The position numbers and the translations under genes are program-made. Below the pieces are notes generated by a model, which saw only the letters and a list, made by a program, of their open reading frames with translations, was not told the DNA's origin and made no database searches. This document shows, piece by piece, positions 1 through 19,450 of a DNA stretch of 64,000 bases; the first letter of the stretch is position 1, and every line of letters starts with the position of its first letter. Location of the stretch: the NCBI GenBank assembly GCA_965228735.1, contig OZ245838.1, positions 2,912,001 to 2,976,000 of the forward strand, in the 5' to 3' direction. The stretch comes from Planctomycetota bacterium (GTDB lineage Bacteria; Planctomycetota; UBA1135; UBA2386).

Positions 1-1418
1 CCGTCACCGTTGATCTGGTTGTCGAACTCCTGGAGCGCGCAGACCCAGCTGAATGCGTTGCCGCCCTCGGCGACCTTGTTGACCGACGGCCGCTCGCAGT
101 CACGCGTGACGATGCCGCGGATCGTGAACGGCGAGCCGAACGTGCCGTCGGGGCCGGACGCGGGCGCGAAGAGCACGCCGCGGACCTGGCTCGTCGGCGT
201 GTTGTGGAACGGATTGCCGCCGTGGTCGTCGGTCTGGAACACGACGAGCGCTTCGTCGCCGCTGCGGTAGGCCTCGACGCCGCCCACGTCGGGCCGCCAG
301 TCACTCTGACCGACGATCCGCGGCAGGACCTCGTAGTTGGTCGCGAGCACGGTGTCGCCCGACGCATGCGCGTGGCAACGGACGCCGGCGTACGGCGTCG
401 TGGCGTTGCGGAACAACCGCTCCATCGCGATCACCCAGTGGTCGACGCCGCCGACGAACGCGCACGACGGCGAGTTGGTGTCCCAGATGTTCGAGATGTC
501 GGTGTAGACCGTGGTCGACCCCGAGTGGTCGTCATCGGTGAGCCGCGCGTAGAGGTCGCCGTCGAGCGCCGAGACGTGGCGCACGTAGGCGAACATCACG
601 TTGTGCGCCGTCGCGACATCGTCCCGCGCGATGTCGCACGCGGTGAGGTGCGCGCCCGACGCGATCTGGACGCGCGTCAGCAGCGGATCGACGACGACGG
701 GCAGCACAGCACTCTCGAGCCAGCTGCCCGGCACCCGCAACGTGATCTCGCCGGCCTCGTAGCCGGTCGTGAGCGGCAGCGTCTGCCCCGCTGCATCGAT
801 CGCGTAGGCCTTGCCGTACTGCGTGATCGCGTTGCCCTGGTCGTCGGAGAACGTCAGCGCCTGGTGCGCCGGCGGCACGTCGGCAGCGACGAGGTCGGAA
901 GTGATCGCGCCCGTGATCACGAGATCGCCGACCACCGGCAGCCGCGTCACGACGAACGTCTGCTCGAGCCCTTCGGCGAGCACGTCATAGGCCTCCGTGA
1001 TGCCGCCGAAGCGGTATTCGACCCGATGATCCGTATGGACCCGGCCAGGCTGGCCCGTGGCGAGTTCGACCCCACCGATCCGCGCCGACGTCGTGCGCCA
1101 CGACAGCGGCTGGTTGCGCGGGTAGTCCTTGCCGAGGTACGGCACGAAGGTCATGTCGCCGTGGAACGAAGCCTTGTAGTCCGCACCGGCGGCCCAGAGG
1201 CCATAGTCGAAGCCGCCATCAGCCGCAGCCGTGTGGACGGGCGTGACCGCGGCGGTCAGCGCCGAGCTACTCGCGGCCATCGTGGCCAGCGTGGCGTCCG
1301 CGGCGGGCGCCGGCCCGGCTGCGAGCGCCGTGCCATCGGGGTTCTGGGCGAAGGCCACGGGCAGCAGCAGGCCGCTGCCGAGCACGAGGGCCGGGATCGA
1401 GATGCGGAGGGAGTTCAT
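1..1418 (-). CDS. Large secreted protein, partial (runs off left edge)
   Basis: Not in the ORF track because its stop lies outside the window. ATG at 1418 reads MNSLRISIPALVLGSGLLLPVAFAQ (signal peptide), then ...YGLWAAGADYKASF...EAYDVLAEGLEQTF...LPVVVDPL, with strong GC3 bias. Confidence 0.8.
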   Translation of the reverse strand, partial: MNSLRISIPALVLGSGLLLPVAFAQNPDGTALAAGPAPAADATLATMAASSSALTAAVTPVHTAAADGGFDYGLWAAGADYKASFHGDMTFVPYLGKDYPRNQPLSWRTTSARIGGVELATGQPGRVHTDHRVEYRFGGITEAYDVLAEGLEQTFVVTRLPVVGDLVITGAITSDLVAADVPPAHQALTFSDDQGNAITQYGKAYAIDAAGQTLPLTTGYEAGEITLRVPGSWLESAVLPVVVDPLLTRVQIASGAHLTACDIARDDVATAHNVMFAYVRHVSALDGDLYARLTDDDHSGSTTVYTDISNIWDTNSPSCAFVGGVDHWVIAMERLFRNATTPYAGVRCHAHASGDTVLATNYEVLPRIVGQSDWRPDVGGVEAYRSGDEALVVFQTDDHGGNPFHNTPTSQVRGVLFAPASGPDGTFGSPFTIRGIVTRDCERPSVNKVAEGGNAFSWVCALQEFDNQINGD

Positions 1419-1574
1419 GGCTGGATCAAGGTCGGAGTCAGGTCATCTGCAGGGTGTCTCCCCTGACCTCGACACGCCGATCCCGACCGCACCGCCGAGC
1501 ACTGGTTTTTTGGAGCAGTGGTGCCGCGCCGCCGGCTGCTCGTCGGCGACCGCACGCGGCACGCGCAGGCGGGG

Positions 1575-2756
1575 TCAGGCGCGGCGCACGCCGAAGCGAA
1601 TCGCGGCGTAGGAGCCGGCCTGACAGATCGCGGCGAAGACCAGCACGCCGTTGAAGCCGAGCTCGGGACCGAGCTCGCGCGCGACGAGCGCGAAGCCGAC
1701 GACGCCGAACTGCATCGCGGCCGTGCGCAGCCCCATGAGCGTGCTGAGCTGCGATTCGGGCACGAGCCCCGAGATCAGCGCCTGCAGCGGCCCGGTCCGC
1801 GCCGCGGCCGTCAGCGCGAGCACGAGCCCGATCGAGAGCAGCGCGAGATCGCCCGGCCCCCGCGCCAGCAGGACGAAGCAGCCGACGAGGACGATCGAAC
1901 ACCAGAGGACGAACGTGCGCTTGCCGAGCCGATCGCTGACCTTGCCGAACCCGGCGCTGCCGACGACGGACAACGCGCCGAGCGCGATCCACAGGTAGAT
2001 CTGCTGCTCCTTCGGCACCCGCCCGGTCTCGTCGAGCCAGCCGGTCGCGAGTTGGACGACCGTGAGGAACGAGCCGACGTGCAGCAGCGTCGCGAGCAGA
2101 CCGGCCGCGACCTGACCGTTCCCGAGCACCGCGCGGTAGCGCGCGTGCTGCTCGTCGTCCGGGATGTCGGGCACGCTGCGAATCGCGAGCACGATCGCGG
2201 CGACACCGATGAGCGCCTGGGCGACGAAGATCGACTCCCAGTGCCCGAAGCGGGCGAGCGCGACGGTCACCGGCATGCCAACCGGGATCGCGAGGAACAT
2301 GCCCGCGGAGAACCAGCCCATCGTCGCGCCGCGCCGTTCGTAGGGCGTGATGCGCGACGCGAGCGCCGACGCGGACGAGTACGCGAGTCCGGCCGCGACC
2401 CCGGACAGCACGCGCTGCGTGGCGAACCACCAGAACCCGAGATCGAGGACGTGCAGCGCGCTGGCGACGACGAAGACCAGCAGCCCGAGCTGCAGCGCCC
2501 GCCGCCGCCCGAGCCGCCGCGCCGCGGGCCGGACGGCGAGCGCGCCGAGCCCCATTCCGATCGCCGTGCCGGCGACGAGGATCTCGGAGTCGCCGCCGGC
2601 GAGCTGCAGCTCCGTGCGCAGGAACGGCAGCAGCGCGCCGAGCACGTTCGCGTTGAGGTTGAGCACGAACGCGGCCCACACGAGCGCGAGCACGGCGAGG
2701 CGCTCGGTCGAGCGCGGCAACTCGGAAGCGGCGGGCGGAGCGGGGTCGGTGGCCAA
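1575..2756 (-). CDS. MFS transporter
   Basis: 393 aa with about 12 hydrophobic segments; motif-A-like ARRLGRR and GKVSDRLGKR. Confidence 0.9.
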   Translation of the reverse strand: MATDPAPPAASELPRSTERLAVLALVWAAFVLNLNANVLGALLPFLRTELQLAGGDSEILVAGTAIGMGLGALAVRPAARRLGRRRALQLGLLVFVVASALHVLDLGFWWFATQRVLSGVAAGLAYSSASALASRITPYERRGATMGWFSAGMFLAIPVGMPVTVALARFGHWESIFVAQALIGVAAIVLAIRSVPDIPDDEQHARYRAVLGNGQVAAGLLATLLHVGSFLTVVQLATGWLDETGRVPKEQQIYLWIALGALSVVGSAGFGKVSDRLGKRTFVLWCSIVLVGCFVLLARGPGDLALLSIGLVLALTAAARTGPLQALISGLVPESQLSTLMGLRTAAMQFGVVGFALVARELGPELGFNGVLVFAAICQAGSYAAIRFGVRRA

Positions 2757-2876
2757 GCACCGGCATCATGGGAGGTCGGGATCTGTTTTCCACGTTCTGC
2801 AGCTCGACCTCGACGCCCGCCGCCGGAGCGGGATAGATTCCCCTGCCCCCATGCAGACGATGTCGGAGCTCAGCGC

Positions 2877-4214
2877 GTGAAGATCGCGATCCTCGGCGGT
2901 GGAATCTCCGGCACGGCGCTCGCGCGGATGCTGGCGGGCGACGGCCACGACGTGGCCGTGCTCGAGCGCAGCGAACGCGCTGGCGGGCTCTGCCAGAGCA
3001 GCCGGTTCGGCGACTTCACGTTCGACAACGCCGGCGGGCACATCCTGTTCTCGAAGAACCAGAAGGTGCTCGACTGGCAGCTCGAGCGCTGCGGCGGCGA
3101 CGACGGCACGGTCCGCACCGAGCGCAACACGAAGATCCGGTGGCACGACCGCTGGGTGCCGTATCCGTTCGAGAACGGCGTCGGCCACCTCACGAAGGCG
3201 GCGATCGTCGAGTGCATGGCCGGCTACGTCGAGGCGTTCGCCGACCGGCGCGCCGGCGCGGAGTGCCCGCCCAACTTCCACGACTGGGTACTGTGGCGCA
3301 TGGGCGAGGGCTTCGCGAAGCACTTCATGCTGCCCTACAACGAGAAGATCTGGGAGTGCGACCTGCACCGCCTGTCGAGCGGCTGGGTCGCGGGCCGCGT
3401 TCCCGAGGCGCCGATCGAGGACATCCTGAAGTCCGCGATCGGCCTCGACACCGACGGCTACACGCACCAGTCGGTCTTCTGGTTCCCGAAGCACGGCGGC
3501 TTCGAAACGCTCGTCCGCGGCACCATCGCGGGCGGCGGGTTCGCGCTCCACACGGGCGTCGCGGTCGAACGCGTCGAACGCAAGGGCAACGGCTTCGCGG
3601 TGAACGGCGAGGACTACGACCTCGTGGTCAACACCGTGCCGCTGCCGCTCATCGAGGGCGCGATCGCCGACATCCCGGACGAGGTGCGCAGCGACATCCG
3701 CGCGCTCGAACCGATCTCGCTCGTCAACCTGATGATCGGCGTGAAGCTCGACGAGCCGCTGCCGCCGCTGTCGTGGGTCTACCTGCCGTTCCCCGAGCAG
3801 GGTCCGGTCAACCGCGTGACCTACTACAGCAACTACGCGCCGGGGAACGCGCCGGCCGGACACGGCTCGTTCCTCGCCGAGGTCACCCACCGCGGCGACC
3901 TGCAACCGGACCGCAAGTGGGCGCGCGAGGTCACCGCGGCGCTCGGCCGCGCCGGCATCCTCGAACCGGACAACGTCGTGCTGCTCGAGTGGTGCGACAA
4001 CACGTTCGCCTACATCGACCAGGACCTCGAGTTCGCGGATCGGATCGGGCGCGTCCGCGGTTGGTTCGACACGAGCGGCTACATCACGTTCGGGCGGTTC
4101 GGGCGCTACGAGTATCACAACAGCGACCAGTGCATCGCGCGGGCCATGGAGGTCGCCGAGCACGTGCGGGAGATCGCGGCGAGCGGGGCCCCGGCCGCGC
4201 CCGTCTTCGCCTGA
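2877..4214 (+). CDS. FAD-dependent oxidoreductase (protoporphyrinogen oxidase / UDP-galactopyranose mutase-like family)
   Basis: GTG at 2877; KIAILGGGISG Rossmann motif, GGLCQS, FDNAGGHILFS, PYNEKIW and GRFGRYEYHNSDQ. Confidence 0.85.
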   Translation: MKIAILGGGISGTALARMLAGDGHDVAVLERSERAGGLCQSSRFGDFTFDNAGGHILFSKNQKVLDWQLERCGGDDGTVRTERNTKIRWHDRWVPYPFENGVGHLTKAAIVECMAGYVEAFADRRAGAECPPNFHDWVLWRMGEGFAKHFMLPYNEKIWECDLHRLSSGWVAGRVPEAPIEDILKSAIGLDTDGYTHQSVFWFPKHGGFETLVRGTIAGGGFALHTGVAVERVERKGNGFAVNGEDYDLVVNTVPLPLIEGAIADIPDEVRSDIRALEPISLVNLMIGVKLDEPLPPLSWVYLPFPEQGPVNRVTYYSNYAPGNAPAGHGSFLAEVTHRGDLQPDRKWAREVTAALGRAGILEPDNVVLLEWCDNTFAYIDQDLEFADRIGRVRGWFDTSGYITFGRFGRYEYHNSDQCIARAMEVAEHVREIAASGAPAAPVFA

Positions 4215-4280
4215 GCGACCGCGGCCGCGTGACGCTCGACCGGATCCCGATCCGATTCGTCGAAAATTCGTTTCCACTAC

Positions 4281-4310
4281 GGAACCCCGGAACCCGACGC
4301 CGCCGTCCAA
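4281..4310 (+). promoter_or_regulatory. Putative ECF sigma-type promoter
   Basis: GGAACC (4281-4286), 17-nt spacer, CGTCCAA (4304-4310), directly upstream of the first hairpin of the candidate ncRNA. Confidence 0.5.
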
Positions 4311-4314
4311 GGGG

Positions 4315-4570
4315 TGTTCCGCGTGGACCATGCCTCTGCGCGGAGCATTCCTGTCTCCAGGATCCCCAGACGAGCATCTTCCGGACGCCGAGACGGCATC
4401 GCGAATCAGAGGGGTCTGTTCCAGGGTGAAAGCCCGAGGTGCAGCTGGCCAGTCAGCGAGTGGCCAGCACGTCTCGCGCTCGTTCCCGGCGGGTTCTGGA
4501 GGCAGGGTCCATTTTACTCTCAGTTCTCATGCAGCAGCGGAGTGCGTTCGTAAGAGCGTGCTCCGCGCTC
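4315..4570 (+). ncRNA. Candidate structured non-coding RNA, family unassigned
   Basis: Stems at 4315-4326/4336-4347, 4350-4365/4491-4506, 4370-4375/4478-4483, 4389-4395/4470-4476, 4444-4451/4461-4468 and 4537-4549/4554-4566. The non-Watson-Crick positions are G-U on the + strand. GAAA and GUAA tetraloops are present. Confidence 0.7.
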
Positions 4571-5170
4571 ATTTCTGGCGACTCCGACCGAACCGGAGCC
4601 GCCCGCTGCGGCCCCGGCCGCCCCCATGGGACGGGGCGCACGACCCGACTCGGGCTGCCGCGCGGGCAAATCGCAGCGGAAAAAGCCCGTGATTGGGTGC
4701 GCCATTCGGTCCCCCTGTTCGTTACCAGAGGGCATCGTGCACTATGGTTGTGCATCCGGAAGGCCCGTTGCGGACGAAGTTCGCGCAGGTCGAGCGCCGT
4801 CACCACCACCACCCGCGGCGTTCTCCGGTCGATTCCCTGACACTTTGACCCCGACCCCGACACGAACGGGGCGGGCCGGACCCGGCGGACCCGAGGTTCC
4901 CGAGAACCCTGGGTTCCGGAACACCCTGGTTTCAGGGTTCGGCCCGACGCACTAGACTTTCTTCCTGGCGTTACGCCGCTTCCGCCGCCGGTTCGCCGGC
5001 GACCAGACCACCCCAATGCCCGACGTCGTGCCCCACCACTGCACGTCTCGGCCGAGCGCGCTGGCTCGGCCCGGGGGCGGACTGGCCGGACGCGGGCTGC
5101 CGCAATGCCGATCCACCCGAGCGGCGCCCCCCTCGAGGGCACCGTCTGCACCCTGGGAGGGGGTGCTCTG

Positions 5171-5518
5171 ATGCCGGAACCGACGATCGAACAGGCCCGG
5201 ATCGAACCAATCCCGAGCGGTCGCATCGACCGCAACCAGGTCCGCGCCGACTGGGCGCGGGACGGCTACAGCTGCGAACTCTGGGTCGATCCCCCGGAGC
5301 GTGTGTGGAGTGACTTCGTGCACGACGCCGACCTGCGGCTGTTGCTGCTGCAGGGCTCGATCCAGGTCGCGCTACCGGACCGGACCGTGCAGCTGACGAC
5401 CGGCGACGAACTCGACGTCCCGGCGCACACCCGCTTCACGATCCGTCACCTCAGCGACCAATCGGCCCGCTGGCTGCACGGCTACCGCCAGCCCGCGCGC
5501 ACCACCCGCGCGTCGTGA
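5171..5518 (+). CDS. Cupin domain protein
   Basis: WVDPPERVWSDFVHDAD...LTTGDELDVPAHTRF cupin pattern; ATG at 5171 preferred over 5105. Confidence 0.8.
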   Translation: MPEPTIEQARIEPIPSGRIDRNQVRADWARDGYSCELWVDPPERVWSDFVHDADLRLLLLQGSIQVALPDRTVQLTTGDELDVPAHTRFTIRHLSDQSARWLHGYRQPARTTRAS

Positions 5519-5533
5519 ACCTACGGGGGATGT

Positions 5534-6061
5534 TCACTCCCGCAGCGTCCAGACGCCGCGTTGGCCCGGGGTCTCCTCGACGCCGACGCTGAGGGAGCGG
5601 ACCGCGAGGTCGGGCCAGATGGGTCGCATGCGTTCGCGCAGCGTGCGGCCGAACCACGCCGCGAGGTTCTCCGCGCTCGAGTTGCTGATCGGCAGGACGA
5701 TGACCTCGTCGGTCGGGATGCGATACCAGCGCTCGCGGTAACGGATCTCCGTCGTGCCGTCGTCCATGGGTTCGGCGGTCAGGACCGGGTGCTCGCCCGG
5801 CAGCAGCAGGTGCTCGTCGAGCTCGTCGCAGAGCGCCCGCACGAGCGGCTTGATCTCCTTGAAGTTGACCACGAGGCCGTGCTCGTCGAGCTCGGTGTGC
5901 AGCTCGACGAACACCTTGTAGTTGTGCCCATGGAGCCGCTCCGCGGTGCCGTCGGGGAAGATCAGGAAGTGCGCCGCGCTGAACTTGAGGTAGTCCTTCT
6001 CGACGAGGATCGACCAGCTCTCGGTCGGGCGTCCGGACGGGCTGTCGCTGGGGCCTTTCAT
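5534..6061 (-). CDS. queD: 6-pyruvoyl-tetrahydropterin synthase / 6-carboxytetrahydropterin synthase family
   Basis: FSAAH, ERLHGHNY, SSAENLA and EETPGQ motifs. Confidence 0.85.
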   Translation of the reverse strand: MKGPSDSPSGRPTESWSILVEKDYLKFSAAHFLIFPDGTAERLHGHNYKVFVELHTELDEHGLVVNFKEIKPLVRALCDELDEHLLLPGEHPVLTAEPMDDGTTEIRYRERWYRIPTDEVIVLPISNSSAENLAAWFGRTLRERMRPIWPDLAVRSLSVGVEETPGQRGVWTLRE

Positions 6062-6120
6062 GGTTGCGGGTCTTGCAGAGGATAGCGGGGGCCCGGCTGG
6101 AGCCGGTATATGGTGTCGGA

Positions 6121-6459
6121 ATGGACCTCTCGAACGTGCCGTGGCAGCAGACGCGCTACTCCGGGATGGCGATCCACTTCTACCGTTCGGGTCGAAAGGA
6201 CGGGGATCGCAGGTCGCAGCGGGTCGTCGCGTTGATCCGGATGGATCCGGGCTGCGGCTACCCGCGTCACAAGCACCAGGGCACCGAGGAGGTCCTGGTG
6301 CTCCGCGGCGCGTACGCCGACGAGTTCGGCGTCCACCGGGCCGGCGCGTTCGTCACCTACGACGACGGCACCACCCACACGCCCGTCGCCGTAGAGGACT
6401 CCGACGAGCCGTGCGTCCTGCTCACCGTGGCCCACGAGGGCATCCGGCTCGAGCGCTGA
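6121..6459 (+). CDS. ChrR-like cupin domain protein
   Basis: MDPGCGYPRHKHQGTEEVLVLRG...HTP; ATG at 6121 lies 6 nt after a TATGGT box. Confidence 0.8.
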   Translation: MDLSNVPWQQTRYSGMAIHFYRSGRKDGDRRSQRVVALIRMDPGCGYPRHKHQGTEEVLVLRGAYADEFGVHRAGAFVTYDDGTTHTPVAVEDSDEPCVLLTVAHEGIRLER

Positions 6460-6488
6460 CGGCGGGGCGGCCCAACGCGGCCCCGCCG
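6460..6488. terminator. Hairpin between convergent cupin and fusA genes
   Basis: CGGCGGGGC / GCCCCGCCG inverted repeat; no U-tract. Confidence 0.4.
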
Positions 6489-6506
6489 GACATCGGCGGC
6501 CAGGGC

Positions 6507-8636
<2,130 letters not shown>

Positions 8637-8799
8637 TGGCGGAGGGCCTCGGATGAGGCGCGGAAAAAATGAAGACAGACCGTGAGCAGATCGTGAGCCC
8701 ACGGCCAAGAGCTTGAGTCGGAACCGCCGAAAACACCGGCAGTTTCCGCGACTTCGCTCGCCGGCAGCAGTGCACCGCGGCCGGTTTTGAAGGCGAAAT

Positions 8800-8827
8800 A
8801 GCTTAGCGGCGCGCGCTCGGCGGTCAA
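8800..8827 (-). promoter_or_regulatory. Putative sigma70 promoter of fusA
   Basis: Minus strand TTGACC-N16-TAAGCT, about 160 nt upstream of the start codon. Confidence 0.55.
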
Positions 8828-8977
8828 CAGGGGTCCGGCCCCACCGGTGCGATCCGGGGCCGGAACGCACGGCCCGACCCGGCGATGGCGCCGACCCGTC
8901 CGCCGCGCCGTCCAGTTCCCCGACAGTCGCGCCCGATGACCGCGGGAGATTTCGTCGCTCCAGGAGAACACGCCATC

Positions 8978-10954
8978 ATGACCGCTCCGCTGATTCGGGC
9001 CCGCGCCGGGCTGGCCGCACTCGCCGCCCTGGCCGTGGCGGCCTTCGGCCTCAGCTCGCCCGCCGCCGCCCAGAAGACGCCCGAGGAGGCGCTGCTGGCT
9101 CTTACCGAGGGCAACCGACGCTTCGCGTCCGGGCGCTCGGTACCGCAGCCCGTCGGCGAAGGGGTTCGACGCACCCTGGCCCGCGGCCAGAGCCCGTTCG
9201 CCGTCGTCGTCTGCTGCGCCGACAGCCGCGTGCCGCCGGAGCACGTCTTCAACTGCGGCCTCGGCGAGCTGTTCGTGATCCGCGTCGCAGCCCATACCTG
9301 CGACCGCGCGACGCTGGCCAGCATCGAGTACGCGGTCGAGCACCTCAACGCGCCGCTGTGCGTCGTGCTCGGCCACGAGAAGTGCGGCGCGGTCACGACC
9401 GCGATCCGCCAGCTGCTGCCGCCCGCCGAAGGCTCCGACCACGATGCGGGTCGGGCGCCCGCCAGCCCGGCGATCCGCCAGCTCGTCGAACAGCTCGAGA
9501 CCGCGGTGCGCAAGGCCACGAGTCGCGACCTCGGGGGCAAGGCGCTCCACGACGCCTGCGAGGAAGAGCACGTGCACCACACGGTGCAGCACGTTCTGCG
9601 CACGAGCCCGCTGCTGCGGCGCTACGTCAAGATCGGGCGACTGCAGGTCACGGGCGCGCGCTACCACCTGCAGAGCGGCCTCGTCGAGTGGCTGCCGTCG
9701 CGACCGCTGCCGAACGAGCACGACACGAACTACGATCCGGACCGTCACGCGGTGCCGGTCAGCACGCCGCCACACGTCGCGCTGCGCCTGCTGCAGGCCG
9801 GCCATCGGCGCTTCCTCGGCGACAGCCTGCCGACCGCGGACCTGTCGGCCGAACGGCGCGAGGCGCTCACCCACGGGGAGCAGCCGCTCGCGATCGTGCT
9901 GACGGACGCGGACTCGCGGATCAGCCCGGAGCACGTGTTCGACGCCGGACTCGGCGAACTCGTCGTCGTTCGGCTCGCGGGCTCGGTGGTCTCCGACAAC
10001 GTGCTCGCGACACTCGAGCTCGCGGCGACCCGTACCGGCGCATCGCTGCTGCTCGTGATGGGCAACACGCGCGACGAAGCGATGCAGCAGGCTGCCGCGC
10101 GCCCCGACAGCCAGGAACTGTCGCCACACCAGCGCGCGCTGCTGACCCAGCTCGAACCCGCGATCGAGGTCGCGCGCCGCCACCACGGCCCGAACAAGGA
10201 CCCGCGCGAGCTCGTGCCGCATGCGGTCGCCGGCAACGTGCTGCGCACGGTCGGGAACCTGCGCGCCCGCAGCAAGGTGCTGCGCGACCTCGAACGGCGC
10301 GGTCGCTTCGCGATCCTGCCGACGGTCTACGACGTCGGATCCGGTGACCTGGCGTGGCTCAAGAGCGACGGCACGATCGTCCCCGATCACGAGCCGCACG
10401 CCGCGCCGGGCGGCGAGACCGCCGTGCATGGCGAGCCCGCGGTGGAGGGCGGCCACGGCGACGGCGATGGCCACGGCGACGGCAATGGCGACGGCAATGG
10501 CCACGATCACGGTCACGGCCACGGCCATGACGCGGGGCACGGTCACGGCGACGATCACGGTCACGGCGGTCACGGCGACGATCACGGGCACGGCGACGGC
10601 GACGGCCACGATCCGGCGCCGGTGCTCGATTGGGGCGCCGCGATGCCGACCGCTTCGGACTTCGGCCACGGCGATTCGCACTCGGGGCACGCTGGCCACG
10701 GCAGCCCCGGCGATCACCCGGGCCACGGTGACGGTCACGACGGGTACGGTGGCCACGGCGACGGGCACGGGGACGAGCACGGGCACGGGCACGGCGACGA
10801 TCACGACCCGCACGCGGCGCACGAACCGCATGCCGCGCGCCACGGCGGCCACGGCGAGCGCGGCGAGTACGGCATCTTCCACCCGATCACGTTCGTCGGG
10901 TTCGGCGGCATCCTGTCGCTGCTGCTCGCCGCCGTGATCGCGATGAAGAAGTAG
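8978..10954 (+). CDS. Exported tandem beta-carbonic anhydrase with His/Gly/Asp-rich linker and C-terminal membrane anchor
   Basis: AGGAG RBS; signal peptide ending AAAQ; domain 1 has CADSR and HEKC; domain 2 has DADSR and NTRD; C-terminal hydrophobic helix followed by KK. Confidence 0.9.
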   Translation: MTAPLIRARAGLAALAALAVAAFGLSSPAAAQKTPEEALLALTEGNRRFASGRSVPQPVGEGVRRTLARGQSPFAVVVCCADSRVPPEHVFNCGLGELFVIRVAAHTCDRATLASIEYAVEHLNAPLCVVLGHEKCGAVTTAIRQLLPPAEGSDHDAGRAPASPAIRQLVEQLETAVRKATSRDLGGKALHDACEEEHVHHTVQHVLRTSPLLRRYVKIGRLQVTGARYHLQSGLVEWLPSRPLPNEHDTNYDPDRHAVPVSTPPHVALRLLQAGHRRFLGDSLPTADLSAERREALTHGEQPLAIVLTDADSRISPEHVFDAGLGELVVVRLAGSVVSDNVLATLELAATRTGASLLLVMGNTRDEAMQQAAARPDSQELSPHQRALLTQLEPAIEVARRHHGPNKDPRELVPHAVAGNVLRTVGNLRARSKVLRDLERRGRFAILPTVYDVGSGDLAWLKSDGTIVPDHEPHAAPGGETAVHGEPAVEGGHGDGDGHGDGNGDGNGHDHGHGHGHDAGHGHGDDHGHGGHGDDHGHGDGDGHDPAPVLDWGAAMPTASDFGHGDSHSGHAGHGSPGDHPGHGDGHDGYGGHGDGHGDEHGHGHGDDHDPHAAHEPHAARHGGHGERGEYGIFHPITFVGFGGILSLLLAAVIAMKK

Positions 10955-10975
10955 GAGCCGGCGCCGTCCCGGCGG

Positions 10976-12691
10976 TCAGCGCAGCCAGGCCGCGATCGCT
11001 GCCTGGCGGCGCGGGTCGTCGTGCCAGCGGAAGTAGACCTGCTCGAGCGCGCTGAACGTCGCCTGCACGATCGGTTTCTCGGCCTTCGGTCGCGTCGCCA
11101 ACCCGGCGATCAGATCGTCGATCATCGCGTCGAGATCGGTCGCCTGGACGTCCGGCGCGGCGATCAGCGGCGCCATGACTTCGCGGTCCCAGCGCACCAG
11201 GGTGAACGTGAACCCGCCGAGCTCGACCTTCATCCACGGGAACGGGCCGGTCCACGGCGGGTGGTCGAACAGCAGCAGGTGGACGCCCTGCGTCCGCAGC
11301 GCATACTCCGTGATCTCCGGGCTGCTGAACAAGCCGCGTTCGTGCCCGACGATGCCGCGCTCCGGGACCGGCTGCCGCGCGAGCCAGTGATCGGTGAGGC
11401 CCGCGACCGATTCGAGGGCGTAGCGCACCGAGGACTCGTAGACGAGCATCGCCTGGGTGCCCGAGAACGCGACGCGCAGATCGGTCTCGCCGCAGAGCTC
11501 GCCGAGACGACGACCGGCCGCGCGGATCCTGTCCGTGCGCTCGGTCGGGTACTGCGCGCGTTCGTCGGCCACGCCGTCGACGCTCTGCCCCATGACGTAG
11601 AGGTCGGGCCGCTGATGGAAGAGCAGCGTCGCGAGTCCGACGAGCAGCACGGCGACCCAGCCGGAGAGGCCGCGCAAGAAGCGCCGCGCCACGACCTCGA
11701 GTGCCAGGTACAGCAGCGGCGTGACGGGCAGACAGAAGCGCGCGAACATGAAGTCGCCGCCGACCCAGACGACGAACGCCAGATAACCGAGCACGATCGC
11801 GCCGAGGCGCAGCAGCCCGGGTCGACGCCGGGCGAACAGGAACGCGGCGGCCGCGACGAGACCCGGCAGCAGCACCCAGTAGGCCTCGAAGTAGAGCTGC
11901 AGGTAGTAGACGCCCTGCCCGAGGTAGGGCTCGTGCGCCGACTTCGCGTACGCGGTGTTGGGCAGCAGTTCGCCGTAGTAGAGGACGCGCCAGCCGAGGA
12001 ACGGCACGAACAGCAGGAAGCCCGGGACGCCGAACGCGAGCGCCGGCGCGAGCGACCGGCGGCGGATGCTCGCGAGCACGGCGAGCAGCCCCGCGAGCGC
12101 GCCGACGAGCGCGCCGTCCGGGCGGGTGACCGCCGCGAGGCAACACAGCAGACTGGCGACCGCGAACGGGCGATTGCCGTCCGCGCGGGCGAGGACGCCG
12201 ACGATCAGCGTCACGAGCAGCACGAAGCCGAGCGTCTCGAGCCCGCAGCTGCTGAAATCGCGCAGGTGCTGGTGCAGCGCGACGCCGACCGCGGCGAGCG
12301 GCAGGAAACGCGCGCCGGTGTCGCCGTCGTGGGCCCCCGCCTCGCCGCGCTCGCTGCGGCCCGCGAGCCGGTTGCCGGCCCACCACGTCGCGGGCACGAG
12401 CGCGCCGTAGCAGACGATGCCGAGTCCCTGGCCGAACGTCACGGGATCGAGGCCACAGCGCACCGCGAGGGCGCAGAGCCAGACCCAGAGCGGGTTGCTG
12501 TAGCCCTCGACGCGTTCGCCCGCGTTGTAGACGAGGCCGAGGCCGCCCGCGAAGTTCTCCGCGTAGCGGAAGGAGATGAACGCGTCGTCGCAGACCCACG
12601 CCCGGCTCCAGGCCCAGGCCATCGCGAGGACGCTGAGCGCCGCGAGCGTGACGACGCGGACCACTCGCGGACTCCCGGCCCCGCCGGTCAC
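10976..12691 (-). CDS. AftB-like GT-C fold membrane glycosyltransferase
   Basis: WVCDDAFISFRYAEN...YNAGERVEGYSNPLW, TRPDG, LPNTAYAK and GGDFM; many TM helices. Confidence 0.75.
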   Translation of the reverse strand: MTGGAGSPRVVRVVTLAALSVLAMAWAWSRAWVCDDAFISFRYAENFAGGLGLVYNAGERVEGYSNPLWVWLCALAVRCGLDPVTFGQGLGIVCYGALVPATWWAGNRLAGRSERGEAGAHDGDTGARFLPLAAVGVALHQHLRDFSSCGLETLGFVLLVTLIVGVLARADGNRPFAVASLLCCLAAVTRPDGALVGALAGLLAVLASIRRRSLAPALAFGVPGFLLFVPFLGWRVLYYGELLPNTAYAKSAHEPYLGQGVYYLQLYFEAYWVLLPGLVAAAAFLFARRRPGLLRLGAIVLGYLAFVVWVGGDFMFARFCLPVTPLLYLALEVVARRFLRGLSGWVAVLLVGLATLLFHQRPDLYVMGQSVDGVADERAQYPTERTDRIRAAGRRLGELCGETDLRVAFSGTQAMLVYESSVRYALESVAGLTDHWLARQPVPERGIVGHERGLFSSPEITEYALRTQGVHLLLFDHPPWTGPFPWMKVELGGFTFTLVRWDREVMAPLIAAPDVQATDLDAMIDDLIAGLATRPKAEKPIVQATFSALEQVYFRWHDDPRRQAAIAAWLR

Positions 12692-14424
12692 CGCAAGAAC
12701 TCCTCGAAGCGGGCCTGCCGCTCGGGGTCGTCGTTCTGATCGAAGTAGTAGCGCTTCAGCGCGGCGTAGTCCTTCCGGACCTGCTTGCGGTCCTTGCCTG
12801 CGAGCCCGGCGAGGTACTCGTCGAGCTTCTCGTCGATCGGCGTGAACACGACGACGTAGTCACGTTCGTGCAGCGCCTGCATCAGCGCGCGGTCGTAGCG
12901 CATGAGACGCGCCGGGATGAGCGTCGGCAGCCCCGGCACCTCGAACCAGACGTCGCGCCAGCCGTCCGTGAGATCCTTGACGCGGTAGTCCCTGTCGAAC
13001 GTGATCTGCACGCCGCGCTCTTCGATGATGTAGTCGAGCACCCGGCGGTAGCCCTTCTCGTGGCCCGGCACGCCGCGGGCCGCGACCTCCTGGTGCGCGA
13101 TCCGCGCGTCGGTGAGCCCCGTGGCGCACTCGATCGCGACCGGCACCTGCGCGCGATACGCGAGGTTGGCCTGGCTGCCGACGATCGCGATGCGCACGTC
13201 GAGCCCGTCGAACACGTCGTGCAGCCGCTCGCCCGTGAGCCGCATCGCCTCGCTCCAGGTCAGGTCATCGAGCCCGGACGGCGCCAGCGTGATCGCGCGG
13301 TTGTCGGAGAAGTGGAACGGGTTCGGGTGCTTGCCGAGCCACGGCGGCTCGACGCGCAGCAGCAGGCCGGCGACGAGTCCGGCGGCGAGCACGACCTGCG
13401 GCCAGCGCGGCAGCCATCGGTTGGCGCCGACGTCGAGCCCGAGCAGCAGCGCGGGCAGCACCGGCACGAGGAAACGGCCGAACATGAAGTCACCGCCCAC
13501 CCAGATCACGAACGCGACGTAGAGCCCGACGAACGCGACGATCGCGAGATGCGGTCGGCGGCCGAGCCACGGCGAGACCGACACCGCGAGGTCCGGCCGC
13601 CTGAGCGCGTAGACGAGCGGCAGCAGGGGCGTCGCGAGCAGCACCCAGTAGCACTTCACGAACTCCCAGACGTAGACCAGCCCCTGCGACGGATACGGGT
13701 CGCTCGCGGACTTGGCGTAGAACGTGTTGGGCACCCAGTAGCCGTAGTAGAGCCGCCGCCACAACAGGTACGGGACGAAGCAGACGAGGAACGGCAGCAC
13801 GTAGGCGAGCAGCAGCCGCGGCGCGCGCCGCTGCCACGCATCGAACAGCACGAAGCAGCCGGTGATCGCGACGAACAGCCCGCCGTCGGGCCGTGTCATC
13901 GCGAGCAGCACGCCGACGAACCCCGCGAGCCTCGCGGCGCGCGCACACCGCAACCGGATCGCGAACGTCAACAACGCGGTCACGAGCAGCGCGAACATCG
14001 CGGTCTCGAGCCCCGCCGGCGCGAGCGACGCCGCGTGGTGCAGCACCGCATAGCCGCACGCTGCGATCGGCACGACCGCGCGGCCCCCGCTCGCCCGCCA
14101 CGCGAGCACCGCGAGCAGCAGCACCGTGCCGGCATGGGCGACCGCCCCCCAGAACGACGCCCAGCTCCCGATCAGCTCGCCGCTGAACCCGACGGTCATG
14201 CCGACCGCGAGCCACATCGTCCACGCGAAGTTGGTGTAGCCCTCGACGGGCGCCTCGTTCGGGTCGCGGTTGAACACCAGTCCGTGCCCGTCGACGAGGT
14301 GCTCCGCGTACCGCATCGAGATGAACGCGTCGTCACACGTCCACCGCAGCGCCCACGCCTGCCCGAACGCGACCGTGACGCAGAGCGCGGTGAGGATCCA
14401 GAAGACGAGACGACTGCGCGGCAT
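12688..14424 (-). CDS. AftB-like GT-C fold membrane glycosyltransferase (paralogue)
   Basis: WTCDDAFISMRYAEH...VEGYTNFAW, TRPDG, VPNTFYAK and GGDFM; 4-nt overlap with the downstream paralogue. Confidence 0.75.
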   Translation of the reverse strand: MPRSRLVFWILTALCVTVAFGQAWALRWTCDDAFISMRYAEHLVDGHGLVFNRDPNEAPVEGYTNFAWTMWLAVGMTVGFSGELIGSWASFWGAVAHAGTVLLLAVLAWRASGGRAVVPIAACGYAVLHHAASLAPAGLETAMFALLVTALLTFAIRLRCARAARLAGFVGVLLAMTRPDGGLFVAITGCFVLFDAWQRRAPRLLLAYVLPFLVCFVPYLLWRRLYYGYWVPNTFYAKSASDPYPSQGLVYVWEFVKCYWVLLATPLLPLVYALRRPDLAVSVSPWLGRRPHLAIVAFVGLYVAFVIWVGGDFMFGRFLVPVLPALLLGLDVGANRWLPRWPQVVLAAGLVAGLLLRVEPPWLGKHPNPFHFSDNRAITLAPSGLDDLTWSEAMRLTGERLHDVFDGLDVRIAIVGSQANLAYRAQVPVAIECATGLTDARIAHQEVAARGVPGHEKGYRRVLDYIIEERGVQITFDRDYRVKDLTDGWRDVWFEVPGLPTLIPARLMRYDRALMQALHERDYVVVFTPIDEKLDEYLAGLAGKDRKQVRKDYAALKRYYFDQNDDPERQARFEEFLR

Positions 14425-14467
14425 GCGGGCTCTGCGGAACCTACCCTACCCAGCCTCGAGATGGCAC

Positions 14468-15217
14468 TCAGAGGCGGCCGAGCAGCCCCGCCGACGGCGG
14501 CAACGCGCGCGCCGTGAGCGAACCCGGGTCGATCGACCATTCGCCCGCGATCCGCAGCACGAGCGCCTCGTCGGGCCACCACTTCATCGGATCGTCGGAG
14601 CGGTCGCGCGGATCGTCGACGTAGCAGCCGAGCAGCTGCTCCGTATCCGTGATCTCGCCCTGCCACAGCACGTTGCCGTCGGTCTCCGTCCACGCGAATG
14701 CGCGCACGAGCTCGCCGTCGTGGGCCACCCCCCAGCCGTGGTGCTCGAGTCCGTCATGGGTGTGGAACCACGCGGCGCGACCGAACGTCCGGCTCAGGCG
14801 TTCGAGGAGGGCCGGCACGATGCGGGCGTAATCGCCGTCCCCGTAGAGGTCCGCGCCGACGGCCAGGACTACGCCCGCGACCGGCGGCGTGACGAACACA
14901 CCCTCGCTCGCCGCGGCCTCGAGACCGGCCTGCCAGTTGGCGGGCAGCACCGTGCGCAGACCGAGCTCGGTGGCGACGCGATCGGGATCGTCGGTCGCGA
15001 GCGCGAGCCACGTCGCGCGCCGCCCGAACGAGCGCGGCACGTCGGGTTCTGCCGCCGGCCGACCGGCCAGCGGACGTCCCGTCGAACTTCAGGTCGGCGT
15101 GGCGAGTTCGGCGCGGCGCGCGCGGATCATGCGGTCCATTCCCCGCAGGCCGAACCACAACAGACCGGCGAGCGCCGCGAGCGCGAGGAGGAGGAGGACG
15201 ATCTGCAGGACGATCAC
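14468..15217 (-). pseudogene. Membrane-anchored hypothetical protein interrupted by an in-frame TGA (or two adjacent genes)
   Basis: GTG 15217 opens a TM helix (VIVLQIVLLLLALAALAGLLWFGL). TGA at 15089-15091 is followed in the same frame by ORF 14468..15040 (PDVPRSFGRRATWLAL...). Confidence 0.55.
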
Positions 15218-15292
15218 GGGCCGCGCGACGATAGCAAGTCGGCGGCCGCGCGAGCCAGAACAGAGGCCAGCCCGAGGTCAGTCAGCCGAAGG

Positions 15293-17053
15293 TCAGCGCC
15301 CGCTCTTGAAGTGCCGGCTGCCGACCCACTCCTTCCAGGCGTCCTCGAGCTTGGTCCAGTCCTCGTCCGTCATGTCGCGGAACGCGATGTCGACGCCCTT
15401 CTTCGTGTCGCCCTCGAGGATCGCGACCTTGCCGTAGATGTCGAGCGCCTCGCCCCACTGCTTCTCGAACCCGCGCTGCACGTTGCCGCGCCGGAAGAAG
15501 TCGATCATCGAGTACGCCTGCGCGTACCGATAGGCCGGACGGTTGGTGTAGAAGAGCTGCCGCGGCCAGCGCACGAGCTCCTTGAACGGGATGTAGTCGC
15601 CGACCCGGACCATGTTCTTGACGTCCTGGTAGCGCATGTCGGAGCCGACGTACTTCCAGCTCGAGCCGGTCCATTCGTGCGAGCCGAAGTAGTCGCCGTG
15701 GCCCTCGTCGAACCAGCGGTGCAGGCTCGCGTGCTTGGGGCTCGCCGGGTGGTGGAAGTAGAGGTCGGCGAACTGGTGCCAGCCCTCGTGGTAGGTGACG
15801 GTCTCGGTCGCGCCAGGCCCCATCATCGTGTCACCGCCGAGGAAGACGACGAGCTCCTTGCTGCCCGGCGAGTACCAGCCGACGACGCCGCCGCTCGTGC
15901 CGCCGTACTTGCAGAACTGGTCGTACGTCGCGCAGAGACGGAACACCGAGTACGGCACCTCGCCCTCGGCCTTCTCGGCCTTCGCGACCATCTCGGCGTC
16001 GGTCGGTTCGGCCTTCTCCGCGGCGCTCTTCGGGCCGGTGACCGGAACGTTGTCGAGCGCCGGCACCGTGCTGGCATCGGGCCACACGGCCTTGGTGCCC
16101 GACTCGTCCATCGGGAAGCTCTCGATGTAGAGCTTGCGCATCTTCTCGAGGCGGTCGCTGTAGAACTCGGCCTGCTTCTTGGCCTTGTTGCGGTCCTCGC
16201 GGCCCTTCGAGAAGTCCCAGGAGTAGAGCACGATGTAGTTGGGCATCGTGAAGTAGTCCCAGCCCTTCAGGCCCTCGATGTTCTTCTTGGCCTTGGCCAG
16301 CGCCTTCTTCTTGGCCGGCGTGTCCGCGAACTTGTCGCGCTTGCCCGCGTCATCTTCCTTCGCGATGTCCTCGGCATCGAGCTGCTTGCCGCTGCGGATC
16401 ATCTTGCGGATGGTCCCGGTCCACTTCGTCTTCGGCTTGCCGCCGGGTTTCTCGACCGGCATCTCGATCACGAGCGCGACCTCGCGATCGCCGAAGTCGT
16501 AGACCGCGGCCTCGCACCAGCACTCGCCGACCGGCCCCCACTTGTTGTCGATGCGCCAGACGTAGTGCTTGTAGTCGGCCTTGCCGTTGCGCCCGCGCTT
16601 GTCCTTGCCGTCCGTGTAGATCTCCATGACCTCGTCGGAGCTGTCGAGCCACTCCTTGAAGCTCTTGTGCGACTTCTTGCCGAAGCGCGCCATCGCCTCC
16701 GCGAGCTGCTTCTTCACCTCGGGCGGCGTGCCCTCGGGCAGGTCGACGTCGGGGCCGTCACCCTCCTTGCCGCCGGCACCTGCCTTCCTGAACTCGTAGA
16801 CGTCGGCCTGCCACGTCCACTGCGCCCGGATCATGTCGTTGCGGTCCTTCGACATGAGGCGCGCGCGATGATGAATGCCGTTCTCGCCGAGACGCATCGG
16901 CAGCCGTTCGAGCCGCCCCGGCGCGTCGATCTCGAGCCTGGCCTCGCGAATCTGCTCCGTGCGCCACTTCTGCGCCGGCATCGCCGTGGCCAGGGCCCCG
17001 GCCATTCCGGCAAGCAGGAACGTTGCAGTGAGTCGACGGCTCATTGGATGCAT
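15293..17053 (-). CDS. Secreted DUF1570-like gluzincin metallopeptidase
   Basis: Signal peptide ending MPAQ; YHEGWHQF (HExxH), WFDEGHGDYF and YAQAYSMIDF. Confidence 0.8.
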   Translation of the reverse strand: MHPMSRRLTATFLLAGMAGALATAMPAQKWRTEQIREARLEIDAPGRLERLPMRLGENGIHHRARLMSKDRNDMIRAQWTWQADVYEFRKAGAGGKEGDGPDVDLPEGTPPEVKKQLAEAMARFGKKSHKSFKEWLDSSDEVMEIYTDGKDKRGRNGKADYKHYVWRIDNKWGPVGECWCEAAVYDFGDREVALVIEMPVEKPGGKPKTKWTGTIRKMIRSGKQLDAEDIAKEDDAGKRDKFADTPAKKKALAKAKKNIEGLKGWDYFTMPNYIVLYSWDFSKGREDRNKAKKQAEFYSDRLEKMRKLYIESFPMDESGTKAVWPDASTVPALDNVPVTGPKSAAEKAEPTDAEMVAKAEKAEGEVPYSVFRLCATYDQFCKYGGTSGGVVGWYSPGSKELVVFLGGDTMMGPGATETVTYHEGWHQFADLYFHHPASPKHASLHRWFDEGHGDYFGSHEWTGSSWKYVGSDMRYQDVKNMVRVGDYIPFKELVRWPRQLFYTNRPAYRYAQAYSMIDFFRRGNVQRGFEKQWGEALDIYGKVAILEGDTKKGVDIAFRDMTDEDWTKLEDAWKEWVGSRHFKSGR

Positions 17054-17239
17054 CACGGTTCGGTTCTCCTGTTCGGACTCTCGGGTCTTCCGGGTTTCCG
17101 GGTGTCTGAAGCTGCTGATCCTAGGCGAACGGGCCACGCAGTGCGTCCCCCCCACCGGTCGAGGACGCGTTACGGTCCCATCGGGGAAATTGCCCGCACG
17201 GCGGGTCGCACGGGACGTCGGCGGACGGGATCACCTCGC

Positions 17240-17388
17240 CCAACGCAGGATCCCCAACGCAGGATCCGCCGAACCGTTCCTGGCTCGCCATCGGTTTCTT
17301 GGTGCCCACCGCCGGTCCCATCCTGTCGGTCCCCGCGCCGGATTCGTCGACGCTGGGATTCCTCGACGCTGGGATTCCTCGACGCAGG
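17240..17388. repeat. Short tandem repeats (14 bp x2; 16 bp x3)
   Basis: CCAACGCAGGATCC x2 at 17240-17267; GATTCSTCGACGCWGG x3 at 17341-17388. Confidence 0.85.
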
Positions 17389-17501
17389 TCGGATCACGAC
17401 GGGCGCTCGCCACGACTCCCCGATTCGGACCGCGGACATTCTCGTTACCACGAACCGCGCGGGTGGCCCGGCCCCTCGGGCCGGCCACCGATCCGCGACG
17501 T

Positions 17502-17846
17502 TCACGTCGCCGGGGGCACCGGATCCTGACCATCGCTCACCCGGCGCTCCAGTTCGGCGAGCGGCGGGATGCCCCACTTGCTGCGTTCGCTGTCCGTCGT
17601 CCCCGCCTCGACGGGCCACAGCTCGCGCCGGCCGTCCCGCTGCCGCACCTGGGTGCCGAACTTCTGCGGCTCCCCGGCGAGGACGCGCATGCGATCGAAC
17701 GCGGCGGCCGCGAGCGGCGGCACGCGCGGGTCGCTCGAGACGTGGCGGACGAGCCCGCGGTAGGCGTCCTGCACGGCGTCGAGGCGGTCGCGCTCGAGGG
17801 CCGCGCGCATCGCCGCCACCGCGTCCTCGATCTCCTCGCCGGTCAT
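17502..17846 (-). CDS. Hypothetical protein (DUF6624-like C-terminal motif)
   Basis: FDRMRVLAGEPQKFGTQ...ERSKWGIPPL. Confidence 0.65.
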   Translation of the reverse strand: MTGEEIEDAVAAMRAALERDRLDAVQDAYRGLVRHVSSDPRVPPLAAAAFDRMRVLAGEPQKFGTQVRQRDGRRELWPVEAGTTDSERSKWGIPPLAELERRVSDGQDPVPPAT

Positions 17847-17859
17847 CGTCGCCGCTCTC

Positions 17860-19410
17860 TCACTGCATGAGTTCCACGATCTGGGTCGCGAGCCGCTGTG
17901 CCAGGTCGTCCCACGCATCGTCGCTCCCGGCCCCGTCGCCGCCCGCCATGTCCACGAACCGCACCGGTCCGGCAGCGCGATCGCCCGCGACGCTCAGCAT
18001 CACGTCCACGTCCGCACGCGACGCCTGGGCGGCGAACAGCACGAGCCCGACATCGTTCTCCGCGCACCACGCCGCGACCTCCGCGAGGGTCGCCTCGAGA
18101 GGCTGTCGCCGCCGCCGTGGCGCGCCGAACGGATCCACGTTCTCGAACTCGGACACGCCGAAGACGAGCACGTCGGGCCGGTAGCCCGTGTAGAACCGGG
18201 AGAACATCGCCCACTGCTGCTCGCTCCAGCCGTCGAACGTCGGCAGGCACGGCACGTCGACGAACGCCGGCGCGCGCAGACCGAGCAACGCGGCGGCGCG
18301 ATTGCCGACGAGCAGTTCGAGGTGGCGTTCCTTCGGCTGTTCGAGCGGCCGGCCGTAGAGCATCTGGCCGCCGAGCAGGAAGACGCGGTGGTCGGCCTCC
18401 TCGGCGGTGTGGATGACGAACGGGCCGTCCACGAGCTGCGCGTGCGCCTGCACGAGCTGCGCGCCGGCGGCCACGCCGAACAGCCGGTCGAGCTGCGCGG
18501 TCGAGCGCTGCACGGGCGGCGCCACGACGATCAGCAGCGCCCCGACCACGGCGAGCAACCGCATGCCGCGAACCAGCAGCAGCGCGATCGCCGCGGTCCC
18601 GGCGAGGTAGGCGAGCAGCGTCGCGGGCGGCGGGTGCCAGAGCGGCGGCCCCGACTGGGAGCCCGCGAGCACCCACGCCGCGAGCGCGAACGCGAGCCCG
18701 ACCGACGGCTGCGCCCCGCGCAGGCGGATGATCACCGCGAGCAGTCCGCCGACGACGATGCCGAGGCCGACCCAGAACCAGCGCGACCACAGCCACGGCG
18801 TCGCGAGCCCGAGGGGCGTGATCGTGAGACTGCGGACGACGGCCGTGCCGCCGCGCGCGACGAGGAGGAACGAGCCGTGGATGTCGTCGGCGAAAAAGCG
18901 CTCCAGCTTCCTGCCGGCGACGTTGGCGTCGAGCGCGCGCCCGCGCCCCTTCACCCAGACGGTCGCGGAATGCCCGGGCGACAGGTCGACGCCGCCGGCG
19001 TCGCGATCCCCGAGCAACGCCTGGTCGCGCGACAGCCACGGCGAACCCGCGCGATCCGCGGACAGTCGCAGCACGCTGAAGCGGCCGTGGAACGGTTCGA
19101 GCTCGGCGCCGATCGTGCGGGGCTCGACGCGCCGCACGACGAGATCGACGATCGCGCCCTCACCGAGTTCGACCTCGAGCTGCAGGTCGAAGTCACCGAA
19201 GGCGAACGGCACGGGCAACCGGCGCGCGTCGTTGATGACGAACGGCTCCTCCTCCCAGCGACCCGTGTAGGGCTGATCGCGCAGCGCGACGCCGCCGGCC
19301 GCGATCGTCGGGTGGATCAGGCCAGCGCAGAACCACCCTGCGACGGCGCCGAACACCAGCATCAGGAGGAGCGAGACGGCGAAGCGATCGTTGGGCTGGC
19401 GTTCGGGCAT
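17860..19410 (-). CDS. Multi-pass membrane protein with a degenerate SGNH-like C-terminal domain
   Basis: ATG 19410; N-terminal TM, soluble beta-rich region, about four TMs, then RVFLLGG...YRPDVLVFG. Confidence 0.7.
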   Translation of the reverse strand: MPERQPNDRFAVSLLLMLVFGAVAGWFCAGLIHPTIAAGGVALRDQPYTGRWEEEPFVINDARRLPVPFAFGDFDLQLEVELGEGAIVDLVVRRVEPRTIGAELEPFHGRFSVLRLSADRAGSPWLSRDQALLGDRDAGGVDLSPGHSATVWVKGRGRALDANVAGRKLERFFADDIHGSFLLVARGGTAVVRSLTITPLGLATPWLWSRWFWVGLGIVVGGLLAVIIRLRGAQPSVGLAFALAAWVLAGSQSGPPLWHPPPATLLAYLAGTAAIALLLVRGMRLLAVVGALLIVVAPPVQRSTAQLDRLFGVAAGAQLVQAHAQLVDGPFVIHTAEEADHRVFLLGGQMLYGRPLEQPKERHLELLVGNRAAALLGLRAPAFVDVPCLPTFDGWSEQQWAMFSRFYTGYRPDVLVFGVSEFENVDPFGAPRRRRQPLEATLAEVAAWCAENDVGLVLFAAQASRADVDVMLSVAGDRAAGPVRFVDMAGGDGAGSDDAWDDLAQRLATQIVELMQ

Positions 19411-19450
19411 GCGCTGGCGCGGCGGGCGCCGCGATCCTACAACACGTGAC

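Follow-up and report, generated by a model that had tools for sequence, protein, structure and literature searches.

Characterized sigmaE regulons include small RNAs that repress envelope mRNAs, among them FoxI of the Hfq-lacking genus Fusobacterium (PMC9546586). The RpoE envelope response is defined by RseA and RseB, and ECF promoters are usually assigned via autoregulation (PMC8103513). A structured RNA encoded by an uncultured member of the Planctomycetota (assembly GCA_965228735.1, contig OZ245838.1) resembles MicA, RybB, and MicL of enterobacteria and their Vibrio counterparts in being a stand-alone gene with a GGAAC-type ECF promoter and in its predicted tie to an autoregulated rpoE-rseA-rseB-like operon (PMC8103513 and PMC9546586). 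It differs from them in its length (~260–270 nt), its multi-helical fold with strong covariation, and the lack of any Rfam similarity. MicA, RybB, and MicL are short and lightly structured. They use Hfq (PMC9546586), whereas a search of the single-contig genome that carries this RNA, which is 93% complete, found no Hfq (PF17209). FoxI of Fusobacterium nucleatum likewise depends on sigmaE in an Hfq-lacking lineage (PMC9546586) but comprises only 87 nt and has a known seed as well as established targets, whereas the RNA described here is three times longer and has repeated loop motifs. No similarity between the two RNAs was detected.

The RNA gene occupies positions 4314–4575 (+) of the window, i.e., of the entire 64,000-nucleotide stretch that was analysed, and encodes a structured RNA of ~260 bases. 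If the downstream cupin gene starts at 5171, the gene-free gap extends from 4215 to 5170; an alternative in-frame ATG at 5105 is possible. The + strand folds with a z score of −6.85 (0 of 200 shuffles as good) and the − strand of the same region with −4.01. Every helix previously claimed for the three domains of the RNA was recovered at its position, and the roughly ten non-Watson-Crick positions, all said to be G-U on the + strand, turned out to be 12 G-U pairs without a single mismatch across the eight helices checked.

All elements of the RNA lie on the + strand. The promoter recognized earlier just before the first stem, GGAACC-N17-CGTCCAA, consists of a −35 box GGAACC (4281–4286) of the ECF (sigmaE) type and a −10 box CGTC(CAA) (4304–4310) whose CGTC begins at 4304; its spacing predicts that transcription would start at about 4312–4315. 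The 5′ hairpin P1 (4314–4348) exposes the loop CCAUGCC (4328–4334), and 71 of 93 homologues contain CAURC within their 5′ portion. It is followed by a pyrimidine linker (GCAUUCC, 4345–4351), which is degenerate in this genome compared with the family consensus GCUCUYU; G[CU]UCU[CU]U occurs in 80 of the 93 homologues. The core domain (4350–4506), supported by covariation among 59 sequences, comprises P2, P2b, a one-sided bulge, P3, and a junction to P4 and P7. Its 16-bp closing stem P2 (4350–4365/4491–4506) delimits a domain of 157 nt and continues into the helix ACGAGC/GCUCGU (4370/4483), a 13-nt bulge with GGACG (4376–4388) opposite a single nucleotide, and the helices CGAGACG/CGUCUCG (4389/4476) and GCAUC/GGUGC (4396/4442).

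The apex of the core carries, on helix P5, the invariant hairpin tip AGA-GGGG-UCU (AGAGGGGUCU, 4408–4417); only the GGGG of this decamer is predicted to be unpaired. Next to it is the P6 hairpin GGGU-GAAA-GCCC (4424–4435), whose GNRA-like loop is present in 87 of 93 homologues and which is swapped for UUCG hairpins in some deep homologues. The P7 hairpin (GCUGGCCA/UGGCCAGC, 4444–4468) has a variable loop on a stem in which all eight pairs change on both sides. The CU-rich 3′ linker (4507–4536) is predicted to be single-stranded in this genome and holds a second CAUGC (4528–4532); most homologues have a hairpin at this position, with CCAUGC or GUGCGAGC as its loop, and 81 of 93 contain either motif. 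The RNA ends in a 13-bp hairpin with a GUAA loop (4537–4566) and a U-rich tail (to 4575), which by its score resembles an intrinsic terminator, and 83 of 93 homologues end in an equivalent hairpin followed by a U-run or UGUAC. Neither the terminator score nor the decamer, the most conserved element of the RNA, featured in the first-pass annotation. Homologues have a median length of ~270 nt and share a common plan: 5′ hairpin, GCUCUYU linker, long irregular stem, a junction bearing the AGAGGGGUCU tip and the GNRA-like hairpin, variable hairpin, 3′ hairpin, and terminator.

Covariation among homologues, proposed earlier as a check on the fold, is pronounced. In a MAFFT alignment of 59 distinct cores, from which duplicates, two promoterless loci, and one homologue with a long insertion were left out, 89.7% of the cells pair, with changes on both sides in 38 of 53 pairs. 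This level was reached by none of 500 shuffles, a count that is not equivalent to a probability because the aligned sequences are related to one another and the structure was derived from the window; slid controls pair at 33–43%. The conserved elements are located in loops and linkers, and the unpaired ones among them are the AGAGGGGUCU tip, the GCUCUYU linker, and the repeated CCAUGC/GUGCGAGC loops; YCAURC is unpaired in 125 of 147 cases. Although the set of 93 homologues was chosen by decamer and promoter, the decamer is exact also in all 15 deep homologues, which were reached via gene order or the covariance model and not via the decamer itself. The tip shows no covariation, and its flanking pair is broken in 14 of the 93 homologues, which argues that the decamer is maintained for its sequence rather than for pairing. 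The GGACG bulge is present once in 71 of 93 homologues. Two other arrangements of this region were rejected: an alternative register that pairs GGACG with CGUCU is without covariation, and a local hairpin CUCGG-ACG-CCGAG is weakly supported, as an alternative fold among near homologues only.

None of the covariance models of Rfam 15 matched the RNA up to E = 10, nor did any reach its gathering score elsewhere in the window; over the RNA in eight diverse homologue loci, there was no match up to E = 1. The claim of a new motif is supported. No description of the RNA was found in abstract-level searches of the literature available without subscription. The main text of bioRxiv 10.64898/2026.10.21.760802 mentions neither Planctomycetes nor ECF, and its cluster tables might contain the family. 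The sequence GGACGCAAAG of some homologues, which presumably resembles c-di-GMP-I riboswitches, receives no support from Rfam. This family-wide structured RNA is genuine and, as far as searched, undescribed.

Within one family of uncultured Planctomycetota, the RNA is a core gene, whereas searches of other families did not find it. A core model derived from 37 diverse sequences (R2) matches 50 of the 53 genomes of the family but none of 97 from the rest of the order; in a sample of the phylum, it matches all three genomes of the family and one of 147 from outside, and this lone outside match is without the motif. Model R1 matched 1 of 131 other genomes, falsely and in a coding region. BLAST yielded matches in 22 of 36 same-family genomes, some of which proved spurious when inspected. 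As a guard against circularity, the region beside the oxidoreductase gene was inspected in 16 family genomes that BLAST had missed or falsely matched: the RNA lies beside this gene in 14 (on the same strand in nine, inverted in five) and elsewhere in one, and in the remaining genome the contig stops 83 bases past the oxidoreductase gene. A search with the core pattern retrieved 61 loci among species genomes, most of them titled Planctomycetota, 43 loci in metagenomes, and none in viral contigs. Outside the family, none of 28 loci with the decamer pattern has the promoter, and none of 28 loci with promoter plus linker has the core words; very remote relatives could be missed because the homologue searches score few candidates per genome.

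Both BLAST and the covariance model recover a single copy of the RNA in the genome, which argues against the dispersed copies expected of a MITE or repeat. The FAD-dependent oxidoreductase gene (2877–4214, +; Pfam Amino_oxidase), a synteny marker outside the RNA, adjoins it in 55 of 60 near homologue loci. A role as riboswitch or leader was rejected, because the cupin gene follows the RNA in only 45 of these 60 loci, the RNA is inverted relative to the oxidoreductase gene in five deep homologues, and a separate promoter-like motif lies downstream. This motif, GTTACC-N16-TATGGT (4721–4748, +), has similar counterparts (GTTAC...TAG/TAT) in the corresponding position of 10 of the 14 near homologues compared and is probably a housekeeping-type promoter of the cupin gene; if real, it renders this gene independent of the RNA. 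Further downstream are a stand-alone gene for a ChrR-like cupin (6064–6459, +), which accompanies queD in many homologue loci, and an EF-G gene (6507–8633, −). The genes for tmRNA, SRP RNA, and RNase P RNA are present elsewhere in the genome, as is a selenocysteine tRNA (2825088–2825186, −; ARAGORN). Two 405-aa ORFs (2435324–2436541 and 1604086–1605303, −) have identical first 110 residues and resemble what we take to be group II intron reverse transcriptases.

Transcription is indicated by metatranscriptomes. In two of them, from two studies, contigs are identical to the window over 4327–4506 and 4329–4503, and a third run, which we guess to be RNA, has a contig over 4343–4518; homologue contigs occur in three further metatranscriptomes. 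In the same three runs, the rest of window positions 1–20000, including the EF-G gene, is unassembled at 95% identity. The RNA is apparently abundant; missing contigs over neighbouring genes in RNA runs are no proof of silence. The runs were located using the stretch 4150–5250, and 6 of the 24 listed were compared, with depths of 3–6. The contigs show neither the strand nor the ends of the transcript.

The motif GGAAC[CA]-N17-CGTC is located at this fixed spacing 5′ of 77 of 84 distinct core matches, i.e., of all intact homologues. The other seven comprise three chance matches, one truncation, and three loci (L013, L114, and L137) in which the 5′ part of the RNA is replaced by unrelated sequence past a sharp junction; the latter are probably chimeric contigs joined at short shared words. 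The genome has 141 matches to Sigma70_r4_2 over the cut-off, many of which sit in open frames of 700–1600 residues. Among five RpoE-like proteins picked by motif from 124 such matches mapped to crude gene calls, one is encoded by a gene (4462731–4463357) that has the promoter motif upstream, just before its GTG start. The motif precedes this candidate sigma factor in all 30 of the best orthologue loci, at the spacing of the RNA promoter in 25, with a spacer one base shorter in four, among them the genome studied here, and with a spacer one base longer in one. Among proteins of solved structure, the closest to the candidate in sequence are SigE, sigma-H, RpoE, and SigW; related sigma factors with 47–54% identity are also encoded in other families, in which searches did not find the RNA.

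The candidate sigma factor is the first gene of an operon (4460734–4463357, −) that also encodes a predicted membrane anti-sigma factor with a zinc motif and an RseB-like protein. The operon is conserved across the family, and its GTG start is apparently leaderless. The product of its second gene contains HxxxCxxC in 19 of 30 loci, and its translation from this genome shows a hydrophobic segment. All but one of the 30 loci include the third gene; its product is RseB-like by virtue of an Atlas score of 0.95 to MucB/RseB clusters, and searches of NCBIfam and of PDB sequences returned nothing, nor did Pfam with a 300-aa part of the protein. In 13 of the 30 loci, a second motif overlaps codons toward the end of the anti-sigma gene. 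Genome-wide, the promoter motif is not enriched over other spacers. No conserved regulon members were found beyond the sigma operon and the RNA, and Tex, the single further candidate checked, was rejected, with the motif kept in just 3 of 27 cases.

Two hallmarks of sigmaE-dependent small RNAs are thus in place, namely a promoter common to the RNA and a predicted autoregulated rpoE operon, and the presence in that operon of a predicted membrane anti-sigma factor and an RseB-like partner. Because the same motif precedes the sigma gene in all 30 orthologues of the rpoE/anti-sigma/rseB-like operon, the RNA is most likely a member of an envelope-stress regulon of the sigmaE type. As judged from these sequence features, it is highly probable that the candidate sigma factor reads the RNA promoter, and the RseB-like partner points to envelope stress as the probable trigger.

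The RNA is likely to represent the RNA arm of the envelope-stress response. Under such stress, the candidate sigmaE-type factor would switch on the RNA, whose scaffold would present the CCAUGC loops, the CUCUYU linker, and the GGGG tip as seeds. The loops are complementary to start codons and the linker to purine-rich ribosome-binding sites, so that the exposed elements might pair with the start regions of mRNAs without the aid of Hfq and repress their translation. Since conserved unpaired words complement start codons (CAU) and ribosome-binding sites (CUCUYU), we tentatively favour such Hfq-independent repression by pairing over the titration of a protein, which is a close rival. GGAGG, GGAGA, and GAGAG are enriched 5′ of start codons in this genome. 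Two features speak against the favoured mechanism: the 5′ linker of this genome is itself degenerate, and only the GGGG of the decamer is predicted to be accessible.

Searches for targets relied on crudely called gene starts and signal peptides and have low power for regulation of few targets. The 13-nt core has no perfect antisense match except within the RNA gene itself, decamer complements are not enriched in leaders, and pairing with the rseB-like leader is no better than that of control windows. The 33 predicted outer-membrane genes pair with the tip no better than average (−10.6 vs −10.9 kcal/mol). GCAUGG-type starts are rarer among predicted secreted-protein genes (15/766 vs 41/762). 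C-runs occur in the leaders of 35% of predicted secreted-protein genes vs 23%, but C-rich leaders were dismissed as targets because the same enrichment (83/155 vs 53/151) is found in 1.6 Mb of a genome (G040) where the RNA was not found. The odds of C-runs at most 30 bases from the start codon are ~1.8–2.1 times higher for genes of predicted secreted than of cytoplasmic proteins in both genomes, and the excess may be a feature of the lineage or an artefact of crude start calling.

The next possibility, held with less conviction than repression by pairing, is that the sigmaE-induced RNA titrates a protein, with the CCAUGC (or GUGCGAGC) loops and the invariant tip sequestering an RNA-binding regulator such as an RRM protein. 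CsrB, RsmY, and RsmZ are RNAs of this kind, protein sponges with multiple GGA loops. The RNA shares with them a short motif repeated in hairpin loops, a stand-alone gene, and an expandable copy number, but its motif is CCAUGC instead of GGA and is usually present in two copies beside a large structured core. Two or more copies of YCAURC are found in 56 of 96 RNAs but in none of 96 upstream controls, although the motif is missing from nine of these RNAs; in one homologue (G336:C2:44700–45400), the motif has expanded to four copies, with three tandem CCAUGC units in the 3′ hairpin. The lack of covariation in the invariant tip would suit a protein ligand, as would the absence of an mRNA target signature in the searches above. 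Against a protein partner, CsrA was not found in the genome, no such hairpin was found upstream of the genes for its two RRM proteins, and intergenic CCAUGC hairpins are few and scattered.

In another reading, which we consider rather unlikely, this large and abundant RNA would be the principal conserved product of a sigmaE-type regulon and would work as a stoichiometric decoy rather than by seed pairing. Its invariant tip would then grip the 16S rRNA tail or a protein, and its AUG loops would mimic start sites, so that translation is throttled under envelope stress. If true, this would place the RNA in a stress-RNA class of its own, different from MicA/RybB, 6S, and CsrB. The specific version in which AGAGGGGUCU is an extended Shine-Dalgarno mimic on the 3′ end of 16S rRNA and the AUG loops mimic start codons, so that small subunits are retained during stress, is doubtful. 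It is kept because the decamer pairs with the 16S tail (9 bp with one bulge, −11.3 kcal/mol; 1.5% of 2000 shuffles as good), a post hoc test of a G-rich word; AGGAGG reaches −9.2 on the same tail. An invariant partner would explain the invariant sequence, and the RNA is the sole piece of 20 kb that was assembled in three runs. However, tRNAs and other sites of the rRNA operon reach better scores, pairing is predicted for the flanks of the decamer, and no reading frame is conserved downstream.

Fainter still are the prospects of a 6S/Ms1-like decoy for RNA polymerase, which would shift the competition among the ~140 ECF sigma factors. 6S RNA is a rod with a symmetric central bubble that mimics an open promoter. 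The RNA resembles 6S RNA (RF00013) and Ms1 in size class, in its long, bulged closing stem, and in its apparent abundance, and the 141 Sigma70_r4_2 matches would provide the competitors. It differs from them by the one-sided 13-nt/1-nt bulge, the branched apex, and the ECF promoter. Several homologues have this bulge paired or are without it, and the CGUC on the 3′ strand, a possible −10 mimic, is lost in deep homologues. A separate rod-shaped locus (1961557–1961747, −; z −3.4) scores 28 bits to RF00013 against a cut-off of 46.4 and is likely the 6S RNA of this genome, apparently missed by the Rfam cut-off. The existence of this 6S-like locus and the absence of a symmetric bubble argue that the RNA is not 6S. 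The interpretation in the first-pass annotation is thus partly supported: the ECF-controlled non-coding RNA with a new motif is upheld by the conservation of the promoter, the covarying pairs, the single copy, the contigs from metatranscriptomes, the lack of an Rfam match, and the candidate for a cognate sigma factor, whereas the suggested kinship to 6S/Ms1 is not supported, also in view of the missing Rfam matches to either up to E = 10.

The notion that there is no functional RNA at all, only a repeat, MITE, leader, or small ORF, is extremely improbable and already largely refuted, because, although GC-rich intergenic DNA readily folds and the ATG of the 5′ loop opens a 120-codon frame in this genome, the locus is single-copy and absent from viral contigs, covaries in 38 of 53 pairs, has its own terminator, occurs in both orientations relative to its neighbours, and shows ATG-to-core distances spread over all three frames, so that the frame is not conserved. 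Functions beyond those named here take the remaining probability.

Assigned to the sigmaE-type regulon, the RNA would extend the sigmaE RNA arm to a lineage of Planctomycetota where neither Hfq nor CsrA was found, with a member that is far larger and more structured than those known. The predicted cognate sigma factor, its anti-sigma factor, and the RseB-like partner would assign the promoter to one of ~140 ECF factors. Despite the uncultured hosts, both the promoter–sigma pair and the partners of the RNA are open to heterologous testing, and the RNA model may serve as a marker of the family in metatranscriptomes.
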